Shown here in pieces: positions 42,712 through 53,448 of a DNA stretch of 64,000 bases. Both the position numbers and the translations under genes were made by a program. The DNA lies in assembly GCA_018304385.1 (NCBI GenBank), contig JAGVWJ010000005.1, forward strand, positions 2,814 through 66,813, written 5' to 3'. The notes beneath the pieces were generated by a model. It saw nothing but the letters and a program-made list of their open reading frames with translations, did not search any database and was not told the origin of the DNA. Position 1 is the first letter of the stretch. Every line of letters starts with the position of its first letter. The stretch comes from Candidatus Micrarchaeota archaeon. Lineage in GTDB: Archaea > Micrarchaeota > Micrarchaeia > Anstonellales > Bilamarchaeaceae.

Positions 42712-42755
42712 GCAAAATTTTGTGCGCATTGTAAATTATCAAATTTACAATACAA
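42712..42755. promoter_or_regulatory. 44-bp conserved element A with 10-bp perfect inverted repeat (ATTGTAAATT-atca-AATTTACAAT)
   Basis: 43/44 identical to 62637-62680. Lies 105 nt upstream of the pilin-like gene start. The two copies fall in different reading frames of the track ORFs that cover them, so they are non-coding. Confidence 0.7.
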
Positions 42756-42859
42756 TTAAAAATCTAAACTTGGCGAATAAGAATATGGCAAAGGCACAGG
42801 TCGCTATTGGTTTGAACACCCGATTGTTCGACGAATCGAACAATGGGCCCATAAATCGA

Positions 42860-43366
42860 ATGTCGATTTATCGGGAGTTCAAAGCTCGCAACTTACGCGG
42901 TCAAGTTGCGATTGAATACTTAATGACTTACGGCTGGGCAATATTAGTACTACTTATAATAATTGGTTTAATATTGGGAAGCGGTATAGCCTCGCCAATA
43001 ATCTCAGAAGACTGTAATCTAGGTTCAAAAATTACATGCAGACATTTCCTATATAATGATGGTGCAAATCTAAAGCTATTAATAAACATGACAAATGGCT
43101 TTGAACATAAGATAAAAATAAAAACTATCACAGTAACGCTAGTTGGAAAGGGCAATATGGCAACTGTACTCACAAATGATGATCCTGAAAGTGGAGAGAG
43201 CTCAAGTATAGAAGCTACGTTCGCAGGCTATAACGCGCCAAGAGACAGCTCAAAAACAATCCAGGTTCTTATAAACTATTATTCGTGCGCGCCAGAGGTT
43301 AATCCTAGCTGCGTAGATATTGCAACGCACCCAATAAGCGGAAAGATAAGCGCTAAGGCTAACTGA
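42860..43366 (+). CDS. class III signal-peptide (archaeal type IV pilin-like) protein
   Basis: MSIYREFKARNLRG|QVAIEYLMTYGWAILVLLIIIGLIL: a basic leader, RG|Q cleavage motif, Glu at +5 and a hydrophobic helix. Confidence 0.7.
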   Translation: MSIYREFKARNLRGQVAIEYLMTYGWAILVLLIIIGLILGSGIASPIISEDCNLGSKITCRHFLYNDGANLKLLINMTNGFEHKIKIKTITVTLVGKGNMATVLTNDDPESGESSSIEATFAGYNAPRDSSKTIQVLINYYSCAPEVNPSCVDIATHPISGKISAKAN

Positions 43367-43762
43367 CTATCGCTTCCATTCTTTAATATCAGGATGAAAA
43401 TCGACTTGATACTCTGGGATTCCTAAAGAAACACCATACTTTCTGGCTTCATCATACTGTGCTTTGCTAGTTCGATCTATTTTGAAAATTTTGTTGCGGA
43501 AAATTATATAGTGATATTGATCGTTTTTAAAATCCGCATACCAGTCATTGTGAACAGAATCTAAAGAGGTACTGATTTCTTCTGCTATTTCATCAGCCCG
43601 ATTTTCAGGAACCTCAACATTGTATAGTGTCCACTTCTTCAAATATGGCGTTTGATGTCTCTCAGTAACTTTTTCAATTTTTGTAGCAAGTATCTTCACT
43701 TTTTTTAAAACATCTTTATTTCCAAGACTTTCTTCAATTATGACGCCCGTATAGTTAGACAT
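43367..43762 (-). CDS. hypothetical protein
   Basis: 131-aa ORF. Its start codon overlaps the valS stop codon by 1 nt. Confidence 0.5.
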   Translation of the reverse strand: MSNYTGVIIEESLGNKDVLKKVKILATKIEKVTERHQTPYLKKWTLYNVEVPENRADEIAEEISTSLDSVHNDWYADFKNDQYHYIIFRNKIFKIDRTSKAQYDEARKYGVSLGIPEYQVDFHPDIKEWKR

Positions 43763-46152
43763 TACGAGACCTCAACTTTAAATTCTCCTTTTTCCTGTTC
43801 AACTTCTTTTATTTTTCCTATTGCCTTAAGCTCATTTACTAATTCGTAGCTCAATAATGTATCCAATGATAATTTTATTTTTGTAAGCTCAGCATTTTGT
43901 GGCATTTTATTCTTAGATTTATATTGACGAACCTCGCCAATAACCTGATTAAATGGCCCCATTGTTTCTACTGACTTTTCATCAATCTCCTTAGCTTCTG
44001 GCCATTCGCTTAAATGAATTGATTTTGTTTTTTTCGCTTCTTGCTCGAAAAGCGCATGATATAACTCTTCGCTTATGTGCGAAGCAAATGGCGCAAGCAA
44101 TTTTATTGTATTAAACAAAATATAGCGTAAAACATACTGCCCATTGTGTTTTGCCTTTTTATCAATTCCATATATTCTATACTTTACATATTCTAGATAA
44201 TTATCACAAACATCATGCCAAAAGAAGGTATGTAATTTATTAATTGCCTGCTGGAATTCGAATACTTCCATATGCTCAGTAAATGATTTTATTAGTTCGT
44301 GCAATCTTGATAGAATCCATCTATCTACTAATGACAAATCTTTGAACGAAACTGATTTGCCAGTATAATCATCTGTGCTCTTTTCCACTAAACGGGCTGC
44401 ATTCCATAGTTTGTTAAGAAAACTTTTCGCATATTTTATATCCTCATAACTAAATGGCCTGTCTTTTGCCATTGCTCCGCTCATGGCTGCCCATTGTCTA
44501 ATTGCATCAGTTGGATATTCCTGCTGAAGCTGCGAAGGGGATATGATATTGCCTAAGCTTTTGCTCATCTTTTTGCCATCTGGTGCCAGCACATTCCCAT
44601 TAAGCAAAATGTTTTCCCATGGTTTCTTGCCAGTTAAACCAACCCCGCTTCTATAAATTGTATAAAATGCCCATGTACGTACTATCTCTACTCCTTGCGG
44701 CCTAAGCGAATTTGGATAAAGCTTAGCAAATTTTTCTTTATCATCTGGCCAACCAGATATAATCAATGGAGTAATAGAAGAATCCACCCAGCAATCACAT
44801 GTGCTTGTTTCTGGCTTTAGTTCTGCGCCACACTTGCATTTTTTTGGTGTTGATTTCTCTGCATAATATGGTAGCTCATTAATGTCTGCAGCAATAGTTG
44901 CGTTACATTTTCCACAGTAATAAAATGGTAATGGTGTACCAAATACCCTCTGTCTGGAGATAACCCAGTCCCATTCTGCACCCTCCACCCAATCAATAAG
45001 ATAGGTAATGCCAAAATCCGGGAACCATTTAACTTCGTGCGCAAGATCTTTTATTTTTTTTCCAGTAGTTCTAATATCAGCAAACCACTGCTTACTTGGA
45101 ATAAGCTCAACTAATGTTTTGCATCTATCATGAACTTTTACTACTTGCTTGAGATTTTTCTTGCCTACTATTTTGCCATCTTTTTCTAGTATCTCAACTA
45201 TTTTCTTTTTGGCTTCTGTTGCTTTTAGCCCATCAATCTCTTTTATTCCAGTATTCTTCATTTTTCCGAATTGATCTATGCAATCAATAAGAGGCAATTT
45301 GTATCTGTGCATCCATACTACATCCATCTTGTCTCCAAAGGTACAAACTTGTAAAATACCTGTTCCAAATTCCTTGTCAACTTCTTTATCTGGAATTATT
45401 GGAACCTCTTTTCCTAAAGCAGTTTTCGCCTTCTTTCCTTGCAAGCTTTTATAGCGCTCATCTTCTGGATTAAACATTACTGCTACGCAAGCAGGAATGA
45501 GCTCTGGCCTAGTTGTCGCTATAATTAAATCTTCACCATTTGGCCCAGTAAACTTAATATCATAGATAATTCCATCCTTTTCTTCATCATCAAGCTCTGC
45601 CTTAGCTATTGCTGATACGCATTTCGGACACCAATAAACAGGATATTCAGCACGATATATTAGTTTTTTATTGTACATCTCAATAAGTGAGATCTGCACT
45701 TTTTTATGATATTCTGGATCCATTGTCCTGTATTCAAATTTCCAATCTGGGCTAAACCCCATTTCTATCATTTGCTGCTTCATTCTTGCTATGAACTCGC
45801 CAGTCCATGCTACGCATTTTTCTCGAAATTCTGCTGGCTTTAGCCTTCCAAACTTTTGCTCTACTTTTACTTCAGTTGGAAATCCTTGGCAATCCCAACC
45901 CTGTGGATAATAGACGTTATAACCGTTCATGCGCTTATAGCGCGCAACAAAATCAAAAAAGCTATAGCTAAGCACATGGCCCATGTGGAGTTCGCCACTG
46001 GTGAAAGGAGGAGGAGTATCGATTGAGTAATGTTTCGAGTTTCCTGTTTTCAGTTTCGTTTCGTCAAACTTAAAAATTTTATTCTCTTGCCAATACTCTT
46101 GCCATTTTTTTTCCATTGATTTGTCGAATCGTTCAGGTAACATAGAGATCAC
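43762..46152 (-). CDS. valS: valyl-tRNA synthetase (short form)
   Basis: YSIDTPPPFTSGELHMGHVLSYSFFDFVARYKRMNGYNVYYPQGWDCQGFPTE, YWCPKC and KMSKSLGN. 796 aa. The start may be the M at 46143. Confidence 0.85.
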   Translation of the reverse strand: MISMLPERFDKSMEKKWQEYWQENKIFKFDETKLKTGNSKHYSIDTPPPFTSGELHMGHVLSYSFFDFVARYKRMNGYNVYYPQGWDCQGFPTEVKVEQKFGRLKPAEFREKCVAWTGEFIARMKQQMIEMGFSPDWKFEYRTMDPEYHKKVQISLIEMYNKKLIYRAEYPVYWCPKCVSAIAKAELDDEEKDGIIYDIKFTGPNGEDLIIATTRPELIPACVAVMFNPEDERYKSLQGKKAKTALGKEVPIIPDKEVDKEFGTGILQVCTFGDKMDVVWMHRYKLPLIDCIDQFGKMKNTGIKEIDGLKATEAKKKIVEILEKDGKIVGKKNLKQVVKVHDRCKTLVELIPSKQWFADIRTTGKKIKDLAHEVKWFPDFGITYLIDWVEGAEWDWVISRQRVFGTPLPFYYCGKCNATIAADINELPYYAEKSTPKKCKCGAELKPETSTCDCWVDSSITPLIISGWPDDKEKFAKLYPNSLRPQGVEIVRTWAFYTIYRSGVGLTGKKPWENILLNGNVLAPDGKKMSKSLGNIISPSQLQQEYPTDAIRQWAAMSGAMAKDRPFSYEDIKYAKSFLNKLWNAARLVEKSTDDYTGKSVSFKDLSLVDRWILSRLHELIKSFTEHMEVFEFQQAINKLHTFFWHDVCDNYLEYVKYRIYGIDKKAKHNGQYVLRYILFNTIKLLAPFASHISEELYHALFEQEAKKTKSIHLSEWPEAKEIDEKSVETMGPFNQVIGEVRQYKSKNKMPQNAELTKIKLSLDTLLSYELVNELKAIGKIKEVEQEKGEFKVEVS

Positions 46153-46174
46153 AATAAAAAAGAATAAATATCGT

Positions 46175-46504
46175 TTAGCTCAACTCTACTATAAGTCTCT
46201 TTTCCTTTGCTTGTGTAATTATAACTGGTTTCGAAGAACTTGAAATACCAAGTGCCTTTGCAACACTAGATTTAAGAGCAATTGCAAGATTTCCACCTAT
46301 TTTGTAAATGGTAGCTTTTTCTGAACCGAATAAACCAAGTTCTTTCATTTTACTTTCTATCCTAGCAGCTTCTTTTGAATTAAATATCTGTTCGTCACAA
46401 GCATTACAAATCTCTGCTTTAAAATGTCCAACAAATATCCCATGACGGACAACGTCTACAATTTTTTTTGTTATCTTTCCTTTCTCACATATAGGGCATA
46501 CCAT
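46175..46504 (-). CDS. zinc-finger + AbrB/SpoVT-like antitoxin
   Basis: MVCPICEKG...CNACDE zinc ribbon, followed by IYKIGGNLAIALKSSVAKALGI (a swapped-hairpin-like segment). Located downstream of the toxin gene. Confidence 0.55.
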   Translation of the reverse strand: MVCPICEKGKITKKIVDVVRHGIFVGHFKAEICNACDEQIFNSKEAARIESKMKELGLFGSEKATIYKIGGNLAIALKSSVAKALGISSSSKPVIITQAKEKRLIVELS

Positions 46505-46512
46505 AAAACCAC

Positions 46513-46719
46513 CTACGTGCGATAGCACGTTATTATTAGCCAGTATCCTTTTTCCTTTTGCGCAACAACTTCAAGGCCGCGATAATAAAACTTATATTTT
46601 TTTTCTGAAATGCGTGTCGTTTGGCTAGACTTTATAATTGTCTCTTCTACCTCATTTGTTGTTATTTTTTCATCTGGCATGGATTCCAGAATAGCGTGCT
46701 TAGTGTACTTCAAGCGCAT
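46513..46719 (-). CDS. DUF4258-like toxin
   Basis: 68 aa. MRLKYTKHAILESMPDEKITTNEVEETI... resembles DUF4258-type toxins. The toxin-first gene order matches HigBA/MqsRA. Confidence 0.5.
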   Translation of the reverse strand: MRLKYTKHAILESMPDEKITTNEVEETIIKSSQTTRISEKKYKFYYRGLEVVAQKEKGYWLIITCYRT

Positions 46720-46721
46720 AG

Positions 46722-46741
46722 ATATTTAATATATTAAATAT
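46722..46741. promoter_or_regulatory. 20-bp perfect palindrome ATATTTAATATATTAAATAT upstream of the toxin-antitoxin operon
   Basis: Read directly. Starts 3 nt upstream of the toxin start codon (46719). Confidence 0.35.
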
Positions 46742-46821
46742 ATTTAATACTATCGTTTTATGATAAATAAAATTTAAACGGATTTACCACGCCATCTCTA
46801 AGAATAGATAATAAAAAATAA

Positions 46822-47658
46822 TTACAAAAAATCCCAAACCCTTTTCCAAATCCTTTGCCCATCCTTCGCCGCAATGCATGCAATACCAGTAGCATTTTCA
46901 ACCTTTTTCGCTTCTTTATCTGCTACAGGTATCATCTTCATGCCCATATGCGAAAGAATCGCCAGCTTTGGCTTTGCAATCTTTAATATTTCTATTACAT
47001 CAAGCGTTGTCATGTGGCCATGATATGGATCTGGCAGGGGTTTTAGACAATTCAAAATTAAATAGTCGCATCCATGATAGCTTTCACCAATTCCTTCATA
47101 ATACTCCGTATCACTAGTATAACCAATCACTGCACCATCAATCCAAAGCTTAAAGCCAAAGCAGCTTTTTTCATCATGTTTAGTTCTAATAGATTCTATT
47201 TCGAACTCGCCTTTTTTTGTTTTTATTTTTTTCTTTTCGCCCCAATTACCAGAATAAACCTGGCCAGCTAGGCCTTGGTGATATAAAGAAACTCCACGAT
47301 CGCCACGTTCATCTCCATCTATCGTATATTTGCTACCAATGAGCGTGCCACCTTTCTTAAGCGTATTTCCAGACATTGCTTCTACAAGAAGTTGCGCATC
47401 GTTTACATGATCAACATGATAATGTGTAACAATAACAGCATCTAATTTATGAACATCTTGTTTCAATCGCAGGCTATGCAATAATGCACCAGGCCCCGGA
47501 TCAACATGGATATTCGCAGATTTTGAATTAATTCTAAATCCAGCTGTTGCACGTATTTGCTTTAGTAGATTAAATCTACCGCCTCCTGTGCCTAAGAAGA
47601 GAATTGAGAAATCCGAAGGATTTCGAGAGCTTTGAACTCTGTTCAAATTAAGTTCCAT
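46822..47658 (-). CDS. MBL-fold metallo-hydrolase
   Basis: VTHYHVDHVND (HxHxDH) and a later H in LSHMG. Start MELNLN at 47658. Confidence 0.75.
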   Translation of the reverse strand: MELNLNRVQSSRNPSDFSILFLGTGGGRFNLLKQIRATAGFRINSKSANIHVDPGPGALLHSLRLKQDVHKLDAVIVTHYHVDHVNDAQLLVEAMSGNTLKKGGTLIGSKYTIDGDERGDRGVSLYHQGLAGQVYSGNWGEKKKIKTKKGEFEIESIRTKHDEKSCFGFKLWIDGAVIGYTSDTEYYEGIGESYHGCDYLILNCLKPLPDPYHGHMTTLDVIEILKIAKPKLAILSHMGMKMIPVADKEAKKVENATGIACIAAKDGQRIWKRVWDFL

Positions 47659-47888
47659 ACGAAAAATTAGAAGAGAATGTTTTTTAATAATAGCAAAGCT
47701 TAGAAACATTTTAATATAGTTGTTATTAATATAACACTATGAGATTATCTTCAAGTGCAGTTGCTGCAGTAATAACATCTAGCCCAGAAAGACGTTCCTT
47801 CCCTACACCAGTAACTGCAGGACCAAAAAGAATAAAGCTTGACATATGTTTTGTTTTTACTAACTACAATCCGAATGAAGTGTATATT

Positions 47889-48227
47889 ATGATATACAAG
47901 GGATATATAAGTGATGGCGAGTCTACAGGTAGCACCACAAAACCAACACTGATAAAAATTGCATCCTTTAGTGAAAGGTCATTAAAGCTAAAGAGCCTAG
48001 CTGAGTTACTTCCAATGAACGAGAACTTAGAAGCACGTTTAGCTCAGCAACAGTCAGGAAAGGTATTAGGGGCTGCTGTTTTTAATTACTTAATAGAAGA
48101 TATTGGAACAAATGGCAACGGCATTGAGTTAAATGGAAAATTAAAACCAGAGTTTGTTGAAGCTTTATTTGCTAAAGACCAAGCAAGATTAGATGATATC
48201 GCAAAAAGTAAAGATATTGAATTATAA
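47889..48227 (+). CDS. hypothetical protein
   Basis: The 112-aa core from the ATG at 47889. The upstream part of the track ORF has atypical composition. Confidence 0.35.
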   Translation: MIYKGYISDGESTGSTTKPTLIKIASFSERSLKLKSLAELLPMNENLEARLAQQQSGKVLGAAVFNYLIEDIGTNGNGIELNGKLKPEFVEALFAKDQARLDDIAKSKDIEL

Positions 48228-49154
48228 TTAGACGGTTTGTAATTTTTCAATCATTCCACAGAATACGCAAATTTCATTAGCAGAAGGCTCCTTGCATTGC
48301 TTGCAGTATTTCATTTCTAGTTTTTCGCCATCTTCTGCTAGACCTTTTCTAAGTGCTTTCTCCATTGCAAAAAAGCTGTTAACTATTTTGAACTTTGTGC
48401 CTGTATACTTTTCTTCTGTTTCATTTAGCTGTTCACGCACATGAGCACGAAATGCATGTCTTGCGTATGGGCACTCTTGAAAATCTATTTCTATGCCACT
48501 TGTCAAAGCATACACAGCAACTTCTTTTTCTGGAGTTCGCATTAACGGACGAATCCGTGGAACGAATTTTTCATCCTCTACAAGCGGTTCGTTAAGGCGA
48601 GCAAGACGTTGTGGTTCATTGCGCATTATATTCATTAAAACTGTTTGTGCAATATCATCAAGATTATGCCCCAATGCTAGTTTATCTGCGTTTAGCTCGC
48701 GAGCTGCATTATTTAATAGACGGCGACGCATAACACCACAGTAACTGCATGGTATCTCTTCCTCACCTTTTTTCTTCATTATTTCATCTAAGCTTAGACC
48801 AACTTCTTTTTTATAAGAAAAAGTATGATGTTCTATGCCTAGCTTCTTGCATTCTGCTTTTGCAAATTCAAGTGTTTTATTCCTATATCCTTCAATGCCT
48901 TCATCAATTGTTATTGCAATTATCTCAAATGGTAATGTCTCTCGCAACCGTGCTAATGAATATAAAAGAACACAACTATCCTTTCCACCGCTTAGCCCAA
49001 CAGCAATACGCTCATTCCTTTTAATCATTGCAAACTCGCGAATAGTTGCCCTGATGCGCTTATCAAACATTTCCTTGAAATGTTTTTCGCATAAATGTGT
49101 TTTTGAATATGGTAAGTAGATGATTGCTGGAGATTTACAAGAAGAACAGAACAT
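48228..49154 (-). CDS. ttuA: tRNA 2-thiolation protein, TtuA/NcsA (Ncs6/Ctu1) family
   Basis: PP-loop GLSGGKDS. N- and C-terminal CxxC zinc fingers (CSSC...C, CKQC...CVFC). Fe-S Cys in CSYCG. LALGHNLDD. Confidence 0.8.
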   Translation of the reverse strand: MFCSSCKSPAIIYLPYSKTHLCEKHFKEMFDKRIRATIREFAMIKRNERIAVGLSGGKDSCVLLYSLARLRETLPFEIIAITIDEGIEGYRNKTLEFAKAECKKLGIEHHTFSYKKEVGLSLDEIMKKKGEEEIPCSYCGVMRRRLLNNAARELNADKLALGHNLDDIAQTVLMNIMRNEPQRLARLNEPLVEDEKFVPRIRPLMRTPEKEVAVYALTSGIEIDFQECPYARHAFRAHVREQLNETEEKYTGTKFKIVNSFFAMEKALRKGLAEDGEKLEMKYCKQCKEPSANEICVFCGMIEKLQTV

Positions 49155-49171
49155 AGATATTACCTAAATAA

Positions 49172-49555
49172 TTAATGAATTCGTTCGATTCCTGGGATTA
49201 GATCAAAATCTGAGTCGAATGAAATTATTTTCTCAATATTGAATTTTTTCATTATGATAATATTGCTAGCGTCACCGAAACTAAGCCCATCGTATTTTTC
49301 TACAAAATACATAATCTGTTCTATCCCCTCCTTTATTTCTACAACAGCAATATCTGATTCAATAATTTTTTCCCAAGTTTCCATGGATTTTTTACCGCCA
49401 TCCCTGCTCTTTATTACTGTAATGATTTCAGATAGAATAATAGTTGTTATAACACCTCGTTCTTCAGAACCTTGAACAAGTTCTACTGCTTTAGAATGCT
49501 CTTCTTCCCTATCTCGAAAAAAAGCAATAAGAACATCTGCATCTAAAAGAATCAC
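49172..49555 (-). CDS. vapC: PIN-domain toxin (VapC)
   Basis: MILLDADVLIAF (Asp4/6), E in SEIITV and a C-terminal FDSDFD: the classic PIN acidic quartet. Confidence 0.8.
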   Translation of the reverse strand: MILLDADVLIAFFRDREEEHSKAVELVQGSEERGVITTIILSEIITVIKSRDGGKKSMETWEKIIESDIAVVEIKEGIEQIMYFVEKYDGLSFGDASNIIIMKKFNIEKIISFDSDFDLIPGIERIH

Positions 49556-49837
49556 TTAAACACCATATACGATTTTATCTATGTCTTTAGAAGAACCTTT
49601 AGGCCCGCCTTTTATGAACCCCGCATATTTTAATAAACCAAAACCCTTCCTCGCTTTTTTTCCTTCGAGATATCCATATTTTTCCTCTGCCACGTGCTCA
49701 AGCGCCATTTCGATTACTTGCGCCTCAGTCACTCGTTCGCCCTTCTCAAGTTGCTCATGAGCCTGAACATATTTGAGGATTACGTCCGCTTGCTTGGGAA
49801 TCTTCTTGGTTATATATTCGCTTGCCATAAATACCAC
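49556..49837 (-). CDS. VapB-like antitoxin
   Basis: 93-aa ORF directly abutting vapC with no gap. Confidence 0.55.
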   Translation of the reverse strand: MVFMASEYITKKIPKQADVILKYVQAHEQLEKGERVTEAQVIEMALEHVAEEKYGYLEGKKARKGFGLLKYAGFIKGGPKGSSKDIDKIVYGV

Positions 49838-49883
49838 CTTTTACACTAATTACACTTTTTACACCAAAGAATTTAAAAACGTG

Positions 49884-50072
49884 CTATCCACCAAAAACAA
49901 CTTTAATAACTTCTACTGTGTCGCTTCCATCAACCTTAGTTGTTTCGGGCGCTAGCTTACCATTCACCTTTATTACTACTTCCTCGCGGCGCATGCCTAA
50001 TTGCTTTATAAGCTGTTCTGCAGTGCCTTTAAACTCTAGCTGTTTCTTTTCATTATTTAGAATAAGTTGCAT
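49884..50072 (-). CDS. ThiS/MoaD-fold ubiquitin-like protein with C-terminal Gly-Gly (SAMP/TtuB-like)
   Basis: 62 aa ending ...VEVIKVVFGG*. Pattern VNGK...V.DGD.VE is typical of ThiS/MoaD. Confidence 0.75.
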   Translation of the reverse strand: MQLILNNEKKQLEFKGTAEQLIKQLGMRREEVVIKVNGKLAPETTKVDGSDTVEVIKVVFGG

Positions 50073-50102
50073 TGCATGATATTACCTTGATTGAATTGTT
50101 TA

Positions 50103-51036
50103 TTAAGGATTTACTATTGGCCAGATCTGCTTTCCTTTGTGATATACGCTCCCAGCACGTATTGCTGCTTCAAATAATGGCCCCGACATATTCCCATTAA
50201 TGTGTATTTCACCGCCATACATGCTACATGCAACTGTTATTCCAACGTCGCCCATAACCAAAATACTGCCTCCATGCATCTCTGCACCTAGAGTATGGCC
50301 ACAGTTTCCTTGAACGATTATTTTACCGCCTCTCATCTTCAACCCAACATAATTTGAAGCATTGCCTTTTATTTTGATAGAGCCTCCATTTAGCATAATC
50401 CCTGCAAACGGTGCAGCATTACCATAAACAATAATCTTACCTTTCATGCAATTTCCGAGCCGTTCACCTGCATTTCCCTTCACTATGACTGTACCACCAT
50501 CCATTAGCGCGGCGCAATCATATCCTGCGTCACCTTCGACAATGATGGTTTTTCTATTATAAATTCCTAAAAGGCCTAGGTCGTCTAGATGACGAGTAAA
50601 TATTGTGTAAGTAGAATCCGACCCATTATTTATCAATGCACTCAGGAACAAACCAGCTCTTTTAGCAAAATCTTTTTCATTCTGAAATTCTCTTATTTAT
50701 CAATGCACTCAGGAACAAACCAGCTCTTTTAGCAAAATCTTTTTCATTCTGAAATTCTCCAAGAGCAAGGTTGAAATTCTCGATATCCGCTTTAGTGTAT
50801 GCGAAACTTCGAATAAGTTCTAATGCTTTCTGGTAACTTTTTCTTGGGTCGACAACAGCCATATCGTCTTTAACAAGCTCGAAGTTTTGCCATGCCTGCT
50901 TTAGAGCTCTTAATGTTTCGTTTTCTTTTATCTCTGCTTTTCTAACTGCGTGTGTAGGCTCGCGTTTATATCTTCGAAATTGATCACTCGCTCGAGCATC
51001 CGAAACTTTTGCGATTCTCCTTTCAACTAGCATCAT
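50103..51036 (-). pseudogene. GXGXG-repeat paralog split by a 67-bp tandem duplication
   Basis: Track ORFs 50677-51036 (N-module, ends ...AGLFLSALINKRISE*) and 50103-50651 (starts MFLSALINNGSDS...) are two halves of one gene. 934 nt minus 67 nt gives 867 nt, which is 289 codons. Confidence 0.85.
50626..50759. repeat. perfect 2 x 67-bp tandem duplication
   Basis: 50626-50692 equals 50693-50759 base for base (ttatttatcaatgcactcaggaacaaaccagctcttttagcaaaatctttttcattctgaaattctc). The flanking bases differ. Confidence 0.95.
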
Positions 51037-51910
51037 TATTCACCGGATAAATTAGTTTACCTTTATGAAATACCTTACCTCCCATCTTATTAACACCAAG
51101 CGAATGGTAATCTCCATTCAAATGAATTTCTCCGCCTTCCATTGCTAAACCAGTATCGTGACCACAATTACCTTCAATTACAATAAGCCCTCCTTTCATA
51201 CATCTTCCGAACTCTTGGTAAGGAGCATTTCCATATACATGTATCCTTCCGCCCGTCATAGAACCTCCGATATACGGCCCAGCATCACCTTTTATTATAA
51301 GCTCGCCACCATGCATATTACTTCCGCTGCCATAATCGCCATATCCTTCAACAATAATTATTCCGCCTTGCATTTCAAGCGCAGCAAATGCAGACGCGTC
51401 CCCTCTTACAATAATAGTTCCTCTTTCCATTTTATGTCCTATGCGCGTTACGTCATTTCCATAGATTATTATGTTTTTAACATTACGAAAACCCAGATCA
51501 TATATTGTTGCATCGTTAGGTGGTTTTATTAAATACCTGGTATCTACAGTATAATTTTCTTCGCTTCCAGTATTGATTAACGCACTTAGTAATAGCCCTG
51601 TTTTTTGAGCAAACCATTTTTCATCTTGAAATTCTATCAATGCGATAACGAATTTTTCTACATCTTTTGCAGAAACGCTTAGGTTTCCTATAAGTCCTAA
51701 AACCCGAACGTATGCCGCATCTTCATTATCTTGCCCATACGCGAATTTATTCCAGATATTTCTTAGTTCTTTGAGAACTACGTCTTCTTTTACATCTGGT
51801 GCTCGAACTTCGTGCGGAGTTTCGCGTTTATATTTACCAAAAATATCGCCTGCGTGTGCAATAGCTGAAACATTTGACACACCCCTTTGTCTTTTTGTAA
51901 TTTTAATCAT
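51023..51910 (-). CDS. N-module + GXGXG beta-helix repeat protein (paralog 3)
   Basis: 295 aa. N-motif GDIFGKYKRETPHEVR, then repeats IIVRGDASAFAALEMQGGIIIVEGYGDYGSGSNMHGGELIIKGDAGPYIGGSMTGGRIHVYGN, and tail FHKGKLIYP. Confidence 0.7.
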   Translation of the reverse strand: MIKITKRQRGVSNVSAIAHAGDIFGKYKRETPHEVRAPDVKEDVVLKELRNIWNKFAYGQDNEDAAYVRVLGLIGNLSVSAKDVEKFVIALIEFQDEKWFAQKTGLLLSALINTGSEENYTVDTRYLIKPPNDATIYDLGFRNVKNIIIYGNDVTRIGHKMERGTIIVRGDASAFAALEMQGGIIIVEGYGDYGSGSNMHGGELIIKGDAGPYIGGSMTGGRIHVYGNAPYQEFGRCMKGGLIVIEGNCGHDTGLAMEGGEIHLNGDYHSLGVNKMGGKVFHKGKLIYPVNNDAS

Positions 51911-51937
51911 TTTAAATCACTCTTTTTCGGTACGGTC

Positions 51938-52741
51938 TCAGCCTATCATAAAAACGTCTAAAGGGGAAGCATTCCAATCAGCAAAGATTTTCTGCCTAGT
52001 TCCTCCTAGATAATCACGAACCAAAGGTCCAATATAAAGGTTAACTCTTTTTAGATTTCTAGTTGTGTTATCTACTTGTTGGTCCTCCATCTTATCTCCT
52101 ATTGGAATTCTAAATCTTTCATCGTATTTGTACCAACCAGCTTCTCTAGGAAAGTTTTCAACTAAGCTAAGATTACTCTCATTGGTTACTCTAAGTTCAT
52201 AGTTATTGCCCCCCAGGGCAACTAGCTCAAAATTCGGATACTCCACTACCAATGCACAATTTATTTTACTTTGGAATTGTTTTGGAACATGAAACTTAAT
52301 ACAATATTCTACATCTTCTTCATCTAACAACCTATATTTGATCCGCTTCCCAAATTTTTTATCAGGTGCTTCGTATATAATAAATGTCCCTGTTATTACT
52401 GGGTAATCTGGTGGTATTCCACTCTCTCCATAATTCGTTTCAGTTAAAATTCTATCATGAATATCATTAGGAACTATTAGCTTGTTTTCTCTTTGTGCTA
52501 AAGCTATAGCTTTAAAGAAATTTAAACTTCCACAATATTCCAATAGTGCGATTACTGCTTCGGGCTTCATACCTCTCAGCATTTCTCTCGTTCTTTGTAT
52601 TCTTTCAGCTAAAGATTGATCTGTAACATCTGCCGATCTAACTGCTTGTGGTTTTTCTTTTTTGTATCTTCTAAATAGATCACTCGCCCGCGTAACAGCA
52701 GAAACAGATCGAACTCTTTCTATTTTCGTAGTTGTAATCAT
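51938..52741 (-). CDS. N-module protein with unrelated C-terminal domain (paralog 2)
   Basis: 267 aa. N-motif SDLFRRYKKEKPQAVR. No GXGXG repeats. The C-terminal ~170 aa are unrecognised. Confidence 0.6.
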   Translation of the reverse strand: MITTTKIERVRSVSAVTRASDLFRRYKKEKPQAVRSADVTDQSLAERIQRTREMLRGMKPEAVIALLEYCGSLNFFKAIALAQRENKLIVPNDIHDRILTETNYGESGIPPDYPVITGTFIIYEAPDKKFGKRIKYRLLDEEDVEYCIKFHVPKQFQSKINCALVVEYPNFELVALGGNNYELRVTNESNLSLVENFPREAGWYKYDERFRIPIGDKMEDQQVDNTTRNLKRVNLYIGPLVRDYLGGTRQKIFADWNASPLDVFMIG

Positions 52742-53448
52742 TTAACATCACTTTTTTCTGGCCATAGTTGTTTGCCTTTGTGATAAATTTTAATATCAGA
52801 TTTAGGGTTACGATGTAGGAAAAGTTTTGAAAAACGGGGTTTGTCTCCATTAACATGTAATGTTCCTCCTCGCATGCTCATGGCAACCCAACTACCAGCA
52901 CTGCCTTCCACTATTACCGTTCCACCGTCCATATTCCATCCCAAATATGCACCGCAATCTCCTTTTACTAATATCCTGCCTTGAGTCATGTGGTCGCCAA
53001 TCCTTATTCCAGCATCACCGTTTATAGTTACGTTCTTGATATTCCCGTACACAGGCGTATTTATCCTTACTGAAAGATGATGCGTATGTATTGTAATTTC
53101 TCTATCTTCACAATTATTGATTAATTGGCTGAGAAAATACCCTGCCTTCCATTCAAAACCCTTTTCATGTTGAAATAATATAAGACTAAGGCTGAACTTC
53201 TCAATATCTTTTGCAGTATATGAAATACCTCTCAATAAGTATCGTGCCTTTGCACGCGCTTTCCCTTCTTGTAAACCTGGTCTAAATTTTTTCCATGCAT
53301 CTGTTATTTGTTTTAGTGTTTGGTCTTCTTCGACTTTAACTTGTCTGACAGGTTGGCGCTCTTCTTTTTTATATCTCCTGAAATAGTCAGCAGCAGCTAA
53401 TCGTTCATGTCCTTTTGGTGTTCCTCTTCGTTGTCGCATTTTTATCAC
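52738..53448 (-). CDS. N-module + short GXGXG beta-helix repeat protein (paralog 1)
   Basis: 236 aa. N-motif ADYFRRYKKEERQPVR, repeats VTINGDAGIRIGDHMTQGRILVKGDCGAYLGWNMDGGTVIVEGSAGSWVAMSMRGGTLHVNGD, tail YHKGKQLWP. Confidence 0.7.
   Translation of the reverse strand: MIKMRQRRGTPKGHERLAAADYFRRYKKEERQPVRQVKVEEDQTLKQITDAWKKFRPGLQEGKARAKARYLLRGISYTAKDIEKFSLSLILFQHEKGFEWKAGYFLSQLINNCEDREITIHTHHLSVRINTPVYGNIKNVTINGDAGIRIGDHMTQGRILVKGDCGAYLGWNMDGGTVIVEGSAGSWVAMSMRGGTLHVNGDKPRFSKLFLHRNPKSDIKIYHKGKQLWPEKSDVK

Follow-up and report, generated by a model that had tools for sequence, protein, structure and literature searches.

We analysed a 64,000-nucleotide stretch of DNA, hereafter the window, which spans positions 2814-66813 of contig C12 in the draft genome G000 (1.53 Mb in 65 contigs, 89% complete; G+C content of the window 36%). 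Positions 50103-51036 on the minus strand hold one GXGXG gene that the deposited sequence presents as two open reading frames (ORFs): an N-terminal half of 119 aa (50677-51036) that ends in AGLFLSALINKRISE followed by a stop codon, and a C-terminal half of 182 aa (50103-50651) with a TTG start that begins with MFLSALINNGSDS. Between the far ends of these ORFs lies a tandem duplication in which a first copy of a 67-bp unit (50626-50692) is followed with zero spacing by a second one (50693-50759). Tandem Repeats Finder described positions 50626-50759 as 2.0 copies of period 67 with 100% matches (score 268), and string comparison agreed that the copies are identical base for base and that their flanks differ (A before copy 1 and C before copy 2; T after copy 1 and C after copy 2), just as an earlier, sequence-only reading of this locus had described them. 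An exact repeat of 67 bases cannot have arisen by chance, and the duplication is real as a feature of the deposited assembly; its presence in the organism's own DNA is a separate matter.

Deleting one copy in silico yields a single open frame of 867 nt that encodes 288 aa. The sequence-only reading had proposed exactly this structure, with a frameshift that splits the gene into the two ORFs and a one-copy form of 288 aa that is colinear with the 295-aa product of the neighbouring gene at 51023-51910, and all of these points were upheld. On the minus strand, the 67-bp unit encodes ...(G)EFQNEKDFAKRAGLFLSALIN..., which is more conserved than any other motif in the protein family, and residues L109 and S110 in this region are invariant in an alignment of 47 sequences.

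The C-terminal ORF matches Pfam family PF01493 (GXGXG) with 45.4 bits at a cut-off of 32.5, and so do the neighbours at 51023-51910 and 52738-53448 (paralog scores of 41.0 and 37.9 bits). An AlphaFold2 model of the restored protein built from the 47-sequence alignment (mean pLDDT 93, pTM 0.85) shows a helical N-terminal domain up to around residue 115 and a beta-helix from residue 120 to 283. When the model was compared to the PDB with Foldseek, only the beta-helix found matches, which were FwdC (8rja_C and 5t61_O) and FhcC (6s6y_C) with a probability of 1.00, rmsd values of 2.0-3.3 Å over 133-163 aligned columns, and 27-34% identity, followed by a weaker match to the C-terminal domain of glutamate synthase. 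By its PF01493 match as well as by superposition, the beta-helix part of the restored protein resembles FwdC, FhcC, and, more weakly, the glutamate synthase C-terminal domain. Unlike these proteins, it is preceded by a helical N-terminal domain of 115 residues without any match in Pfam or, by Foldseek, in the PDB, and its gene belongs to tandem arrays of paralogs rather than to their operons. Subunits of formylmethanofuran dehydrogenase or glutamate synthase were not found among the gene's neighbours, which are paralogs, a ThiS/SAMP-like gene, a PIN toxin pair, a TtuA-like PP-loop enzyme, and enolase.

Proteins with this N-terminal domain and a GXGXG beta-helix form a family with around 17 or more full-length copies in the 1.5-Mb genome (e.g., C8:13006-13695, C1:811-1605, C57:6058-8302, C29:50229-50987, C14:299-928, and C37:71-949). 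Even more copies are found in a congener (G002; 74 matches), while the family is absent from a second congener and from most of the taxonomic family. Tandem arrays and the vicinity of contig ends are frequent locations of these copies. The closest named relatives of the protein come from metagenome-assembled genomes (MAGs) labelled Candidatus Micrarchaeota and Candidatus ainarchaeum, and a scan with the single protein found two distant relatives only, which likewise point to a Micrarchaeota-like lineage. The organism is accordingly a DPANN archaeon of the Micrarchaeota kind. Roughly the first 50 residues of family members, with the motif F.RYK.E....VR, also head proteins whose remainder is unrelated and without a Pfam match, both in the window (51938-52741, minus strand) and elsewhere in the genome (C20:85121-85297, C15:1738-1878, C19:20901-21020, C36:1146-1295, C7:25189-25344, and C40:41458-41580), and this head looks like an N-terminal module common to different bodies. 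Directly downstream of the paralog array, the minus-strand genes at 48228-50072 encode a ThiS/SAMP2-like protein of 62 aa whose last residues are GG, a toxin with a PIN domain and its small upstream partner, and a TtuA-like PP-loop enzyme that carries a LIM-type zinc finger at its N-terminus; together they look like a set for tRNA thiolation or a SAMP-type sulfur carrier.

The sequence-only reading had pointed to sibling genomes as a way to judge the duplication, and we compared seven loci (L010-L016) from six further assemblies of this groundwater population, i.e., five ENA contigs with k141 (MEGAHIT-style) names, the scaffold ANAN16-1...scaffold_20091, and a contig from JGI. All seven contain a single 67-bp unit with identical flanks, and the junction between two copies was found in none of them. 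Six of these loci match the one-copy gene at all 867 nt, while the seventh differs at three synonymous-looking sites. Protein databases give a matching picture: Protein P0069, which is recorded on 9-10 contigs (JGI/IMG and ENA), is identical to the restored 288-aa sequence, and P0068, a 118-aa fragment in NCBI nr, is the sole member of the cluster that comes from the NCBI record of this genome. Programmed frameshifting or another form of recoding across the duplication was considered as well and rejected because the duplication is absent from the DNA of every other assembly.

We further examined eight public sequencing runs that hold the sequence (X1-X8; groundwater and soil metagenomes of 2015-2016) in the form of Logan contigs (k=31), which drop rare variants. 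Position 50625 is joined directly to position 50693 in five of the eight (X1, X2, X6, X7, and X8) by contigs of 231 to 4911 bases, i.e., with copy 2 following on directly from the left flank or, equivalently, one copy skipped. In the other three (X3, X4, and X5), contigs break only at a bubble of strain-specific single-nucleotide polymorphisms (SNPs) and leave 50678-50704 uncovered. No Logan contig of any of the eight runs contains the copy-to-copy junction, a result obtained at the contig level where rare variants may drop out. A 60-mer composed of junction words only matched no public run either, though this is a weak test that sampled just two words. As far as public data show, one of the two copies is therefore missing from the organism's DNA.

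How a second copy would look in such graphs was simulated with k=31 unitigs for either form alone (two copies or one) and for both forms mixed. As soon as the two-copy form is present at all, the graph breaks at 50655, 50692, and 50730, and the two-copy form itself appears as a left unitig up to 50655, a 67-bp unitig, a 60-bp junction unitig, and a right unitig starting at 50730. The observed contigs pass through these break points, which means that the graphs lacked the junction words, at least at any abundance that passes the assembler's filter. SNP patterns singled out no run as the source of the assembly, since 3-8 SNPs over 16 kb separate the window from every run tested (8 differing sites for X1 and 3 for X6). 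The contigs of X1-X5 that carry the window haplotype show zero differing bases over 50300-51100.

The surroundings of the duplication vary between co-occurring strains. On its low side, a graph branch point lies at 50584-50623 where the sequence of the window meets a P0003-like allele (268 aa) whose C-terminal half is different; this allele has a depth of around 5.5 vs 7.3, and a loose end, GTATTAAAGGCGCCTAGCGAGTTTATATTT, precedes 50584. Proteins of the P0003 type share the N-terminal 125 residues and then diverge. The co-occurring alleles are mosaic in that P0071 combines a variant N-terminal domain with the beta-helix of the window, and P0003 combines this variant N-terminal domain of P0071 with a different, shorter beta-helix. 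The alleles switch within the conserved LFLSALINNGSDSTYTIFT stretch, a pattern suggestive of modules having recombined. On the high side, the SNP bubble of a second strain covers positions 50738, 50758, 50788, 50795, 50797, and 50803 in the Logan contigs, and the first two of these fall inside the 67-bp unit (positions 46 and 66 of the unit). Further on, a deletion of 2211 bp (51233-53443; joint 51232 to 53444) removes three of the four tandem paralogs, i.e., those at 52738-53448 and 51938-52741 as well as most of the one at 51023-51910. This deletion has a few bases of microhomology (AAATGC) at its junction and was seen in four runs at a depth of 4-7.6, similar to the 5.4 of the undeleted path, and also in the independent assemblies L011 and L014; it is a real population variant.

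A second duplication that is specific to the window, of only 5 bp (TTGCA TTGCA, TTGCATTGCA; ATGCAATGCA on the minus strand), lies at 50067-50076. It sits at the start codon of the ThiS/SAMP-like gene at 49884-50072 and leaves the ORF undamaged. The duplication is absent from L010, where the alignment has a 5-base gap, and from the Logan contigs of the four runs tested. Two Logan contigs, 42726-50072 and 50043-50623, meet exactly here, and we regard the 5-bp duplication as probably another artefact of joining contigs. The second of these, a contig of 576 bp, is bounded by a branch point on either side, and at or next to both of them the window contains one extra duplication: The 67-bp duplication starts 3 bases past the contig's high end at 50623. 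The ends of the 67-bp unit itself (50626 and 50692) differ from the k=31 unitig ends (50623 and 50670). Misassembly through paralogs was rejected as a source of the branching, since the nearest other genomic copies of the stretch are only 70-77% identical; the branching therefore comes from strain variants and not from paralogs.

A scan of all 65 contigs for exact two-copy tandem repeats revealed that the 67-bp duplication is not alone in this genome. In total, we found 12 such duplications with periods of 21, 23, 26, 27, 30, 31, 35, 40, 41, 42, 67, and 88, while there are zero cases with periods of 15-20 genome-wide and a handful below 15. Besides the one studied here, they are located at C1:375 (30 bp), C2:17454 (40 bp), C8:2169 (26 bp), C11:411 (23 bp), C11:10630 (41 bp), C14:394 (27 bp), C20:484 (21 bp), C31:396 (88 bp), C43:6167 (35 bp), C55:1334 (42 bp), and C65:6589 (31 bp). 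Five of the 12 sit 375-484 bp from a contig end. Eight have a length that is not divisible by 3, which is what one would expect in the absence of selection, and for seven of these eight frame-breaking duplications the deletion of one copy restores a longer ORF (from 192 to 409 aa, 51 to 208, 705 to 814, 210 to 279, 120 to 289, 190 to 200, and 52 to 177). Among the restored proteins are PurD (phosphoribosylamine-glycine ligase), PEP synthase or pyruvate phosphate dikinase (PPDK), subunit E of the A-type ATPase, a cyclase, and an HD hydrolase. Each of the five duplications that were tested (67, 40, 41, 42, and 88 bp) occurs as a single copy in Logan contigs: Beyond the 67-bp case, this holds for the 40-bp duplication in one informative run, for the 41-bp duplication in four runs (with X1 matching perfectly at this locus), for the in-frame 42-bp duplication in four runs, and for the 88-bp duplication in three runs. 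The eleven further duplications are most likely the same assembly artefact, and a cell in which all such genes are freshly frameshifted is not credible.

The way in which scaffolds of this genome were joined has left another kind of trace. At two of its ten N-gaps, the bases before the gap are repeated exactly right after it (31 bp at C28:22268-22282 and 23 bp at C38:691-724); both are contig overlaps that were left unmerged in scaffolding and could simply be closed. Chen et al. 2020 (PMC7111523) described this error of duplicated flanks at joins in scaffolds of IDBA-UD and CLC, and found local assembly errors to be prominent in the output of IDBA-UD. The two N-gaps fit their description exactly. 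The gap-free duplications share with it the exact duplicate at a contig join, the setting of a scaffolded groundwater MAG, the false frameshifts and truncated proteins, and the location at sites of strain variation. Unlike the variant with Ns described there, no Ns separate the copies at 50626-50759, where the contigs abut directly, and the 12 gap-free duplications would be explained most simply if the same event took place with the gap estimated at zero. Our guess, given the ANAN16 sibling scaffold and the N-gaps, is that the assembler was IDBA-UD.

Taken together, we are highly confident that the 67-bp duplication is an artefact of scaffold joining in which an overlap between two contigs was left unmerged. 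Several strains of one Micrarchaeota-like population co-occur and diverge on both sides of this conserved stretch, and the assembler would have broken its contigs at this locus. The breaks would have occurred here because the strains diverge, with the alternative C-terminal allele, the SNP bubble, and the 2.2-kb deletion all close by, and this neighbouring strain variation is probably what caused them. As for the exact software step, we infer that two contigs sharing 67 bases were set end to end during scaffolding or local re-assembly and that the shared bases, with the overlap unmerged, were consequently written twice. An assembly artefact was among the options that the sequence-only reading had listed, and it is this option that the one-copy assemblies and runs, the recurrence across the genome, the position at graph branch points, and the duplicated flanks of N-gaps support.

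Two biological explanations have to be weighed against the unmerged overlap. The first holds that a rare but real duplication of the RecA type exists in a small fraction of cells of the source sample and was captured by the assembler; gained and lost as the two copies recombine, it would reversibly switch off one member of a fast-recombining paralog family. The locus is indeed variable, given the 2211-bp deletion, the alternative C-terminal allele, and the SNP bubble; the paralogs are numerous and seem to recombine; and low-frequency variants can be missed by Logan contigs. Nevertheless, we consider this explanation very improbable: The junction occurs in none of the eight runs and in none of the seven independent contigs, and the assembly contains eleven similar duplications, several of them in housekeeping genes, and the runs lack the four of these that were tested. 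Known slippage switches, moreover, are built from short units in many copies and not from two of 67 bp.

Phase-variable contingency loci typically change by slipped-strand mispairing of units of 1 to around 9 bp that are present in many copies and vary among reads and strains. The locus studied here resembles them in that a change in repeat copy number shifts the frame of a member of a multi-copy family, but it differs by its 67-bp unit, its two copies, and the lack of copy-number variation in any of the runs and assemblies. Accordingly, the reversible on/off switch by slippage that the sequence-only reading had envisaged found no support, and its suggestion that copy number might be heterogeneous in the population is at odds with the one-copy state as the only one seen outside this assembly.

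The second biological explanation, a real and recent duplication that is fixed or dominant in the binned strain and has turned the paralog into a fresh pseudogene, is more improbable still: The deposited sequence and the zero divergence between copies would fit a very recent event, but X1-X5 carry the window haplotype without the junction (with X1 and X2 joining 50625 to 50693), six independent contigs equal the one-copy gene at every base, and it is implausible that a strain would carry seven or more freshly frameshifted genes that include several core genes. The idea of a very recent event with pseudogenisation, raised when only the window had been read, is not supported, given the single copy in independent assemblies and runs and the lack of any junction there. 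Both biological explanations would additionally have to account for the eleven more duplications, for the absence of the four tested ones from the runs, and for the two duplicated flanks of N-gaps.

Returning to the unmerged overlap, the finding carries no biological weight since the gene is intact, and it has a small weight for data hygiene. The false duplications of this genome (at least 12 in tandem, two at N-gap flanks, and one of 5 bp) create false frameshifts and truncated proteins, and such artefacts could pass for pseudogenes, programmed frameshifts, or phase variation. They can be flagged by screening for N-gaps whose flanks are duplicated and for exact two-copy tandem repeats of 20 bp or more, above all in the vicinity of contig ends. 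Caution is also called for with any other finding in this genome that builds on perfect short duplications, which should not be taken as biology. At the locus itself, the frameshift, both half-ORFs, and the two truncated proteins in databases are almost certainly products of the assembly error. Nothing biological is thus likely to take place at the duplication, and the organism's real gene is almost certainly present in one copy that encodes an intact protein of 288 aa.
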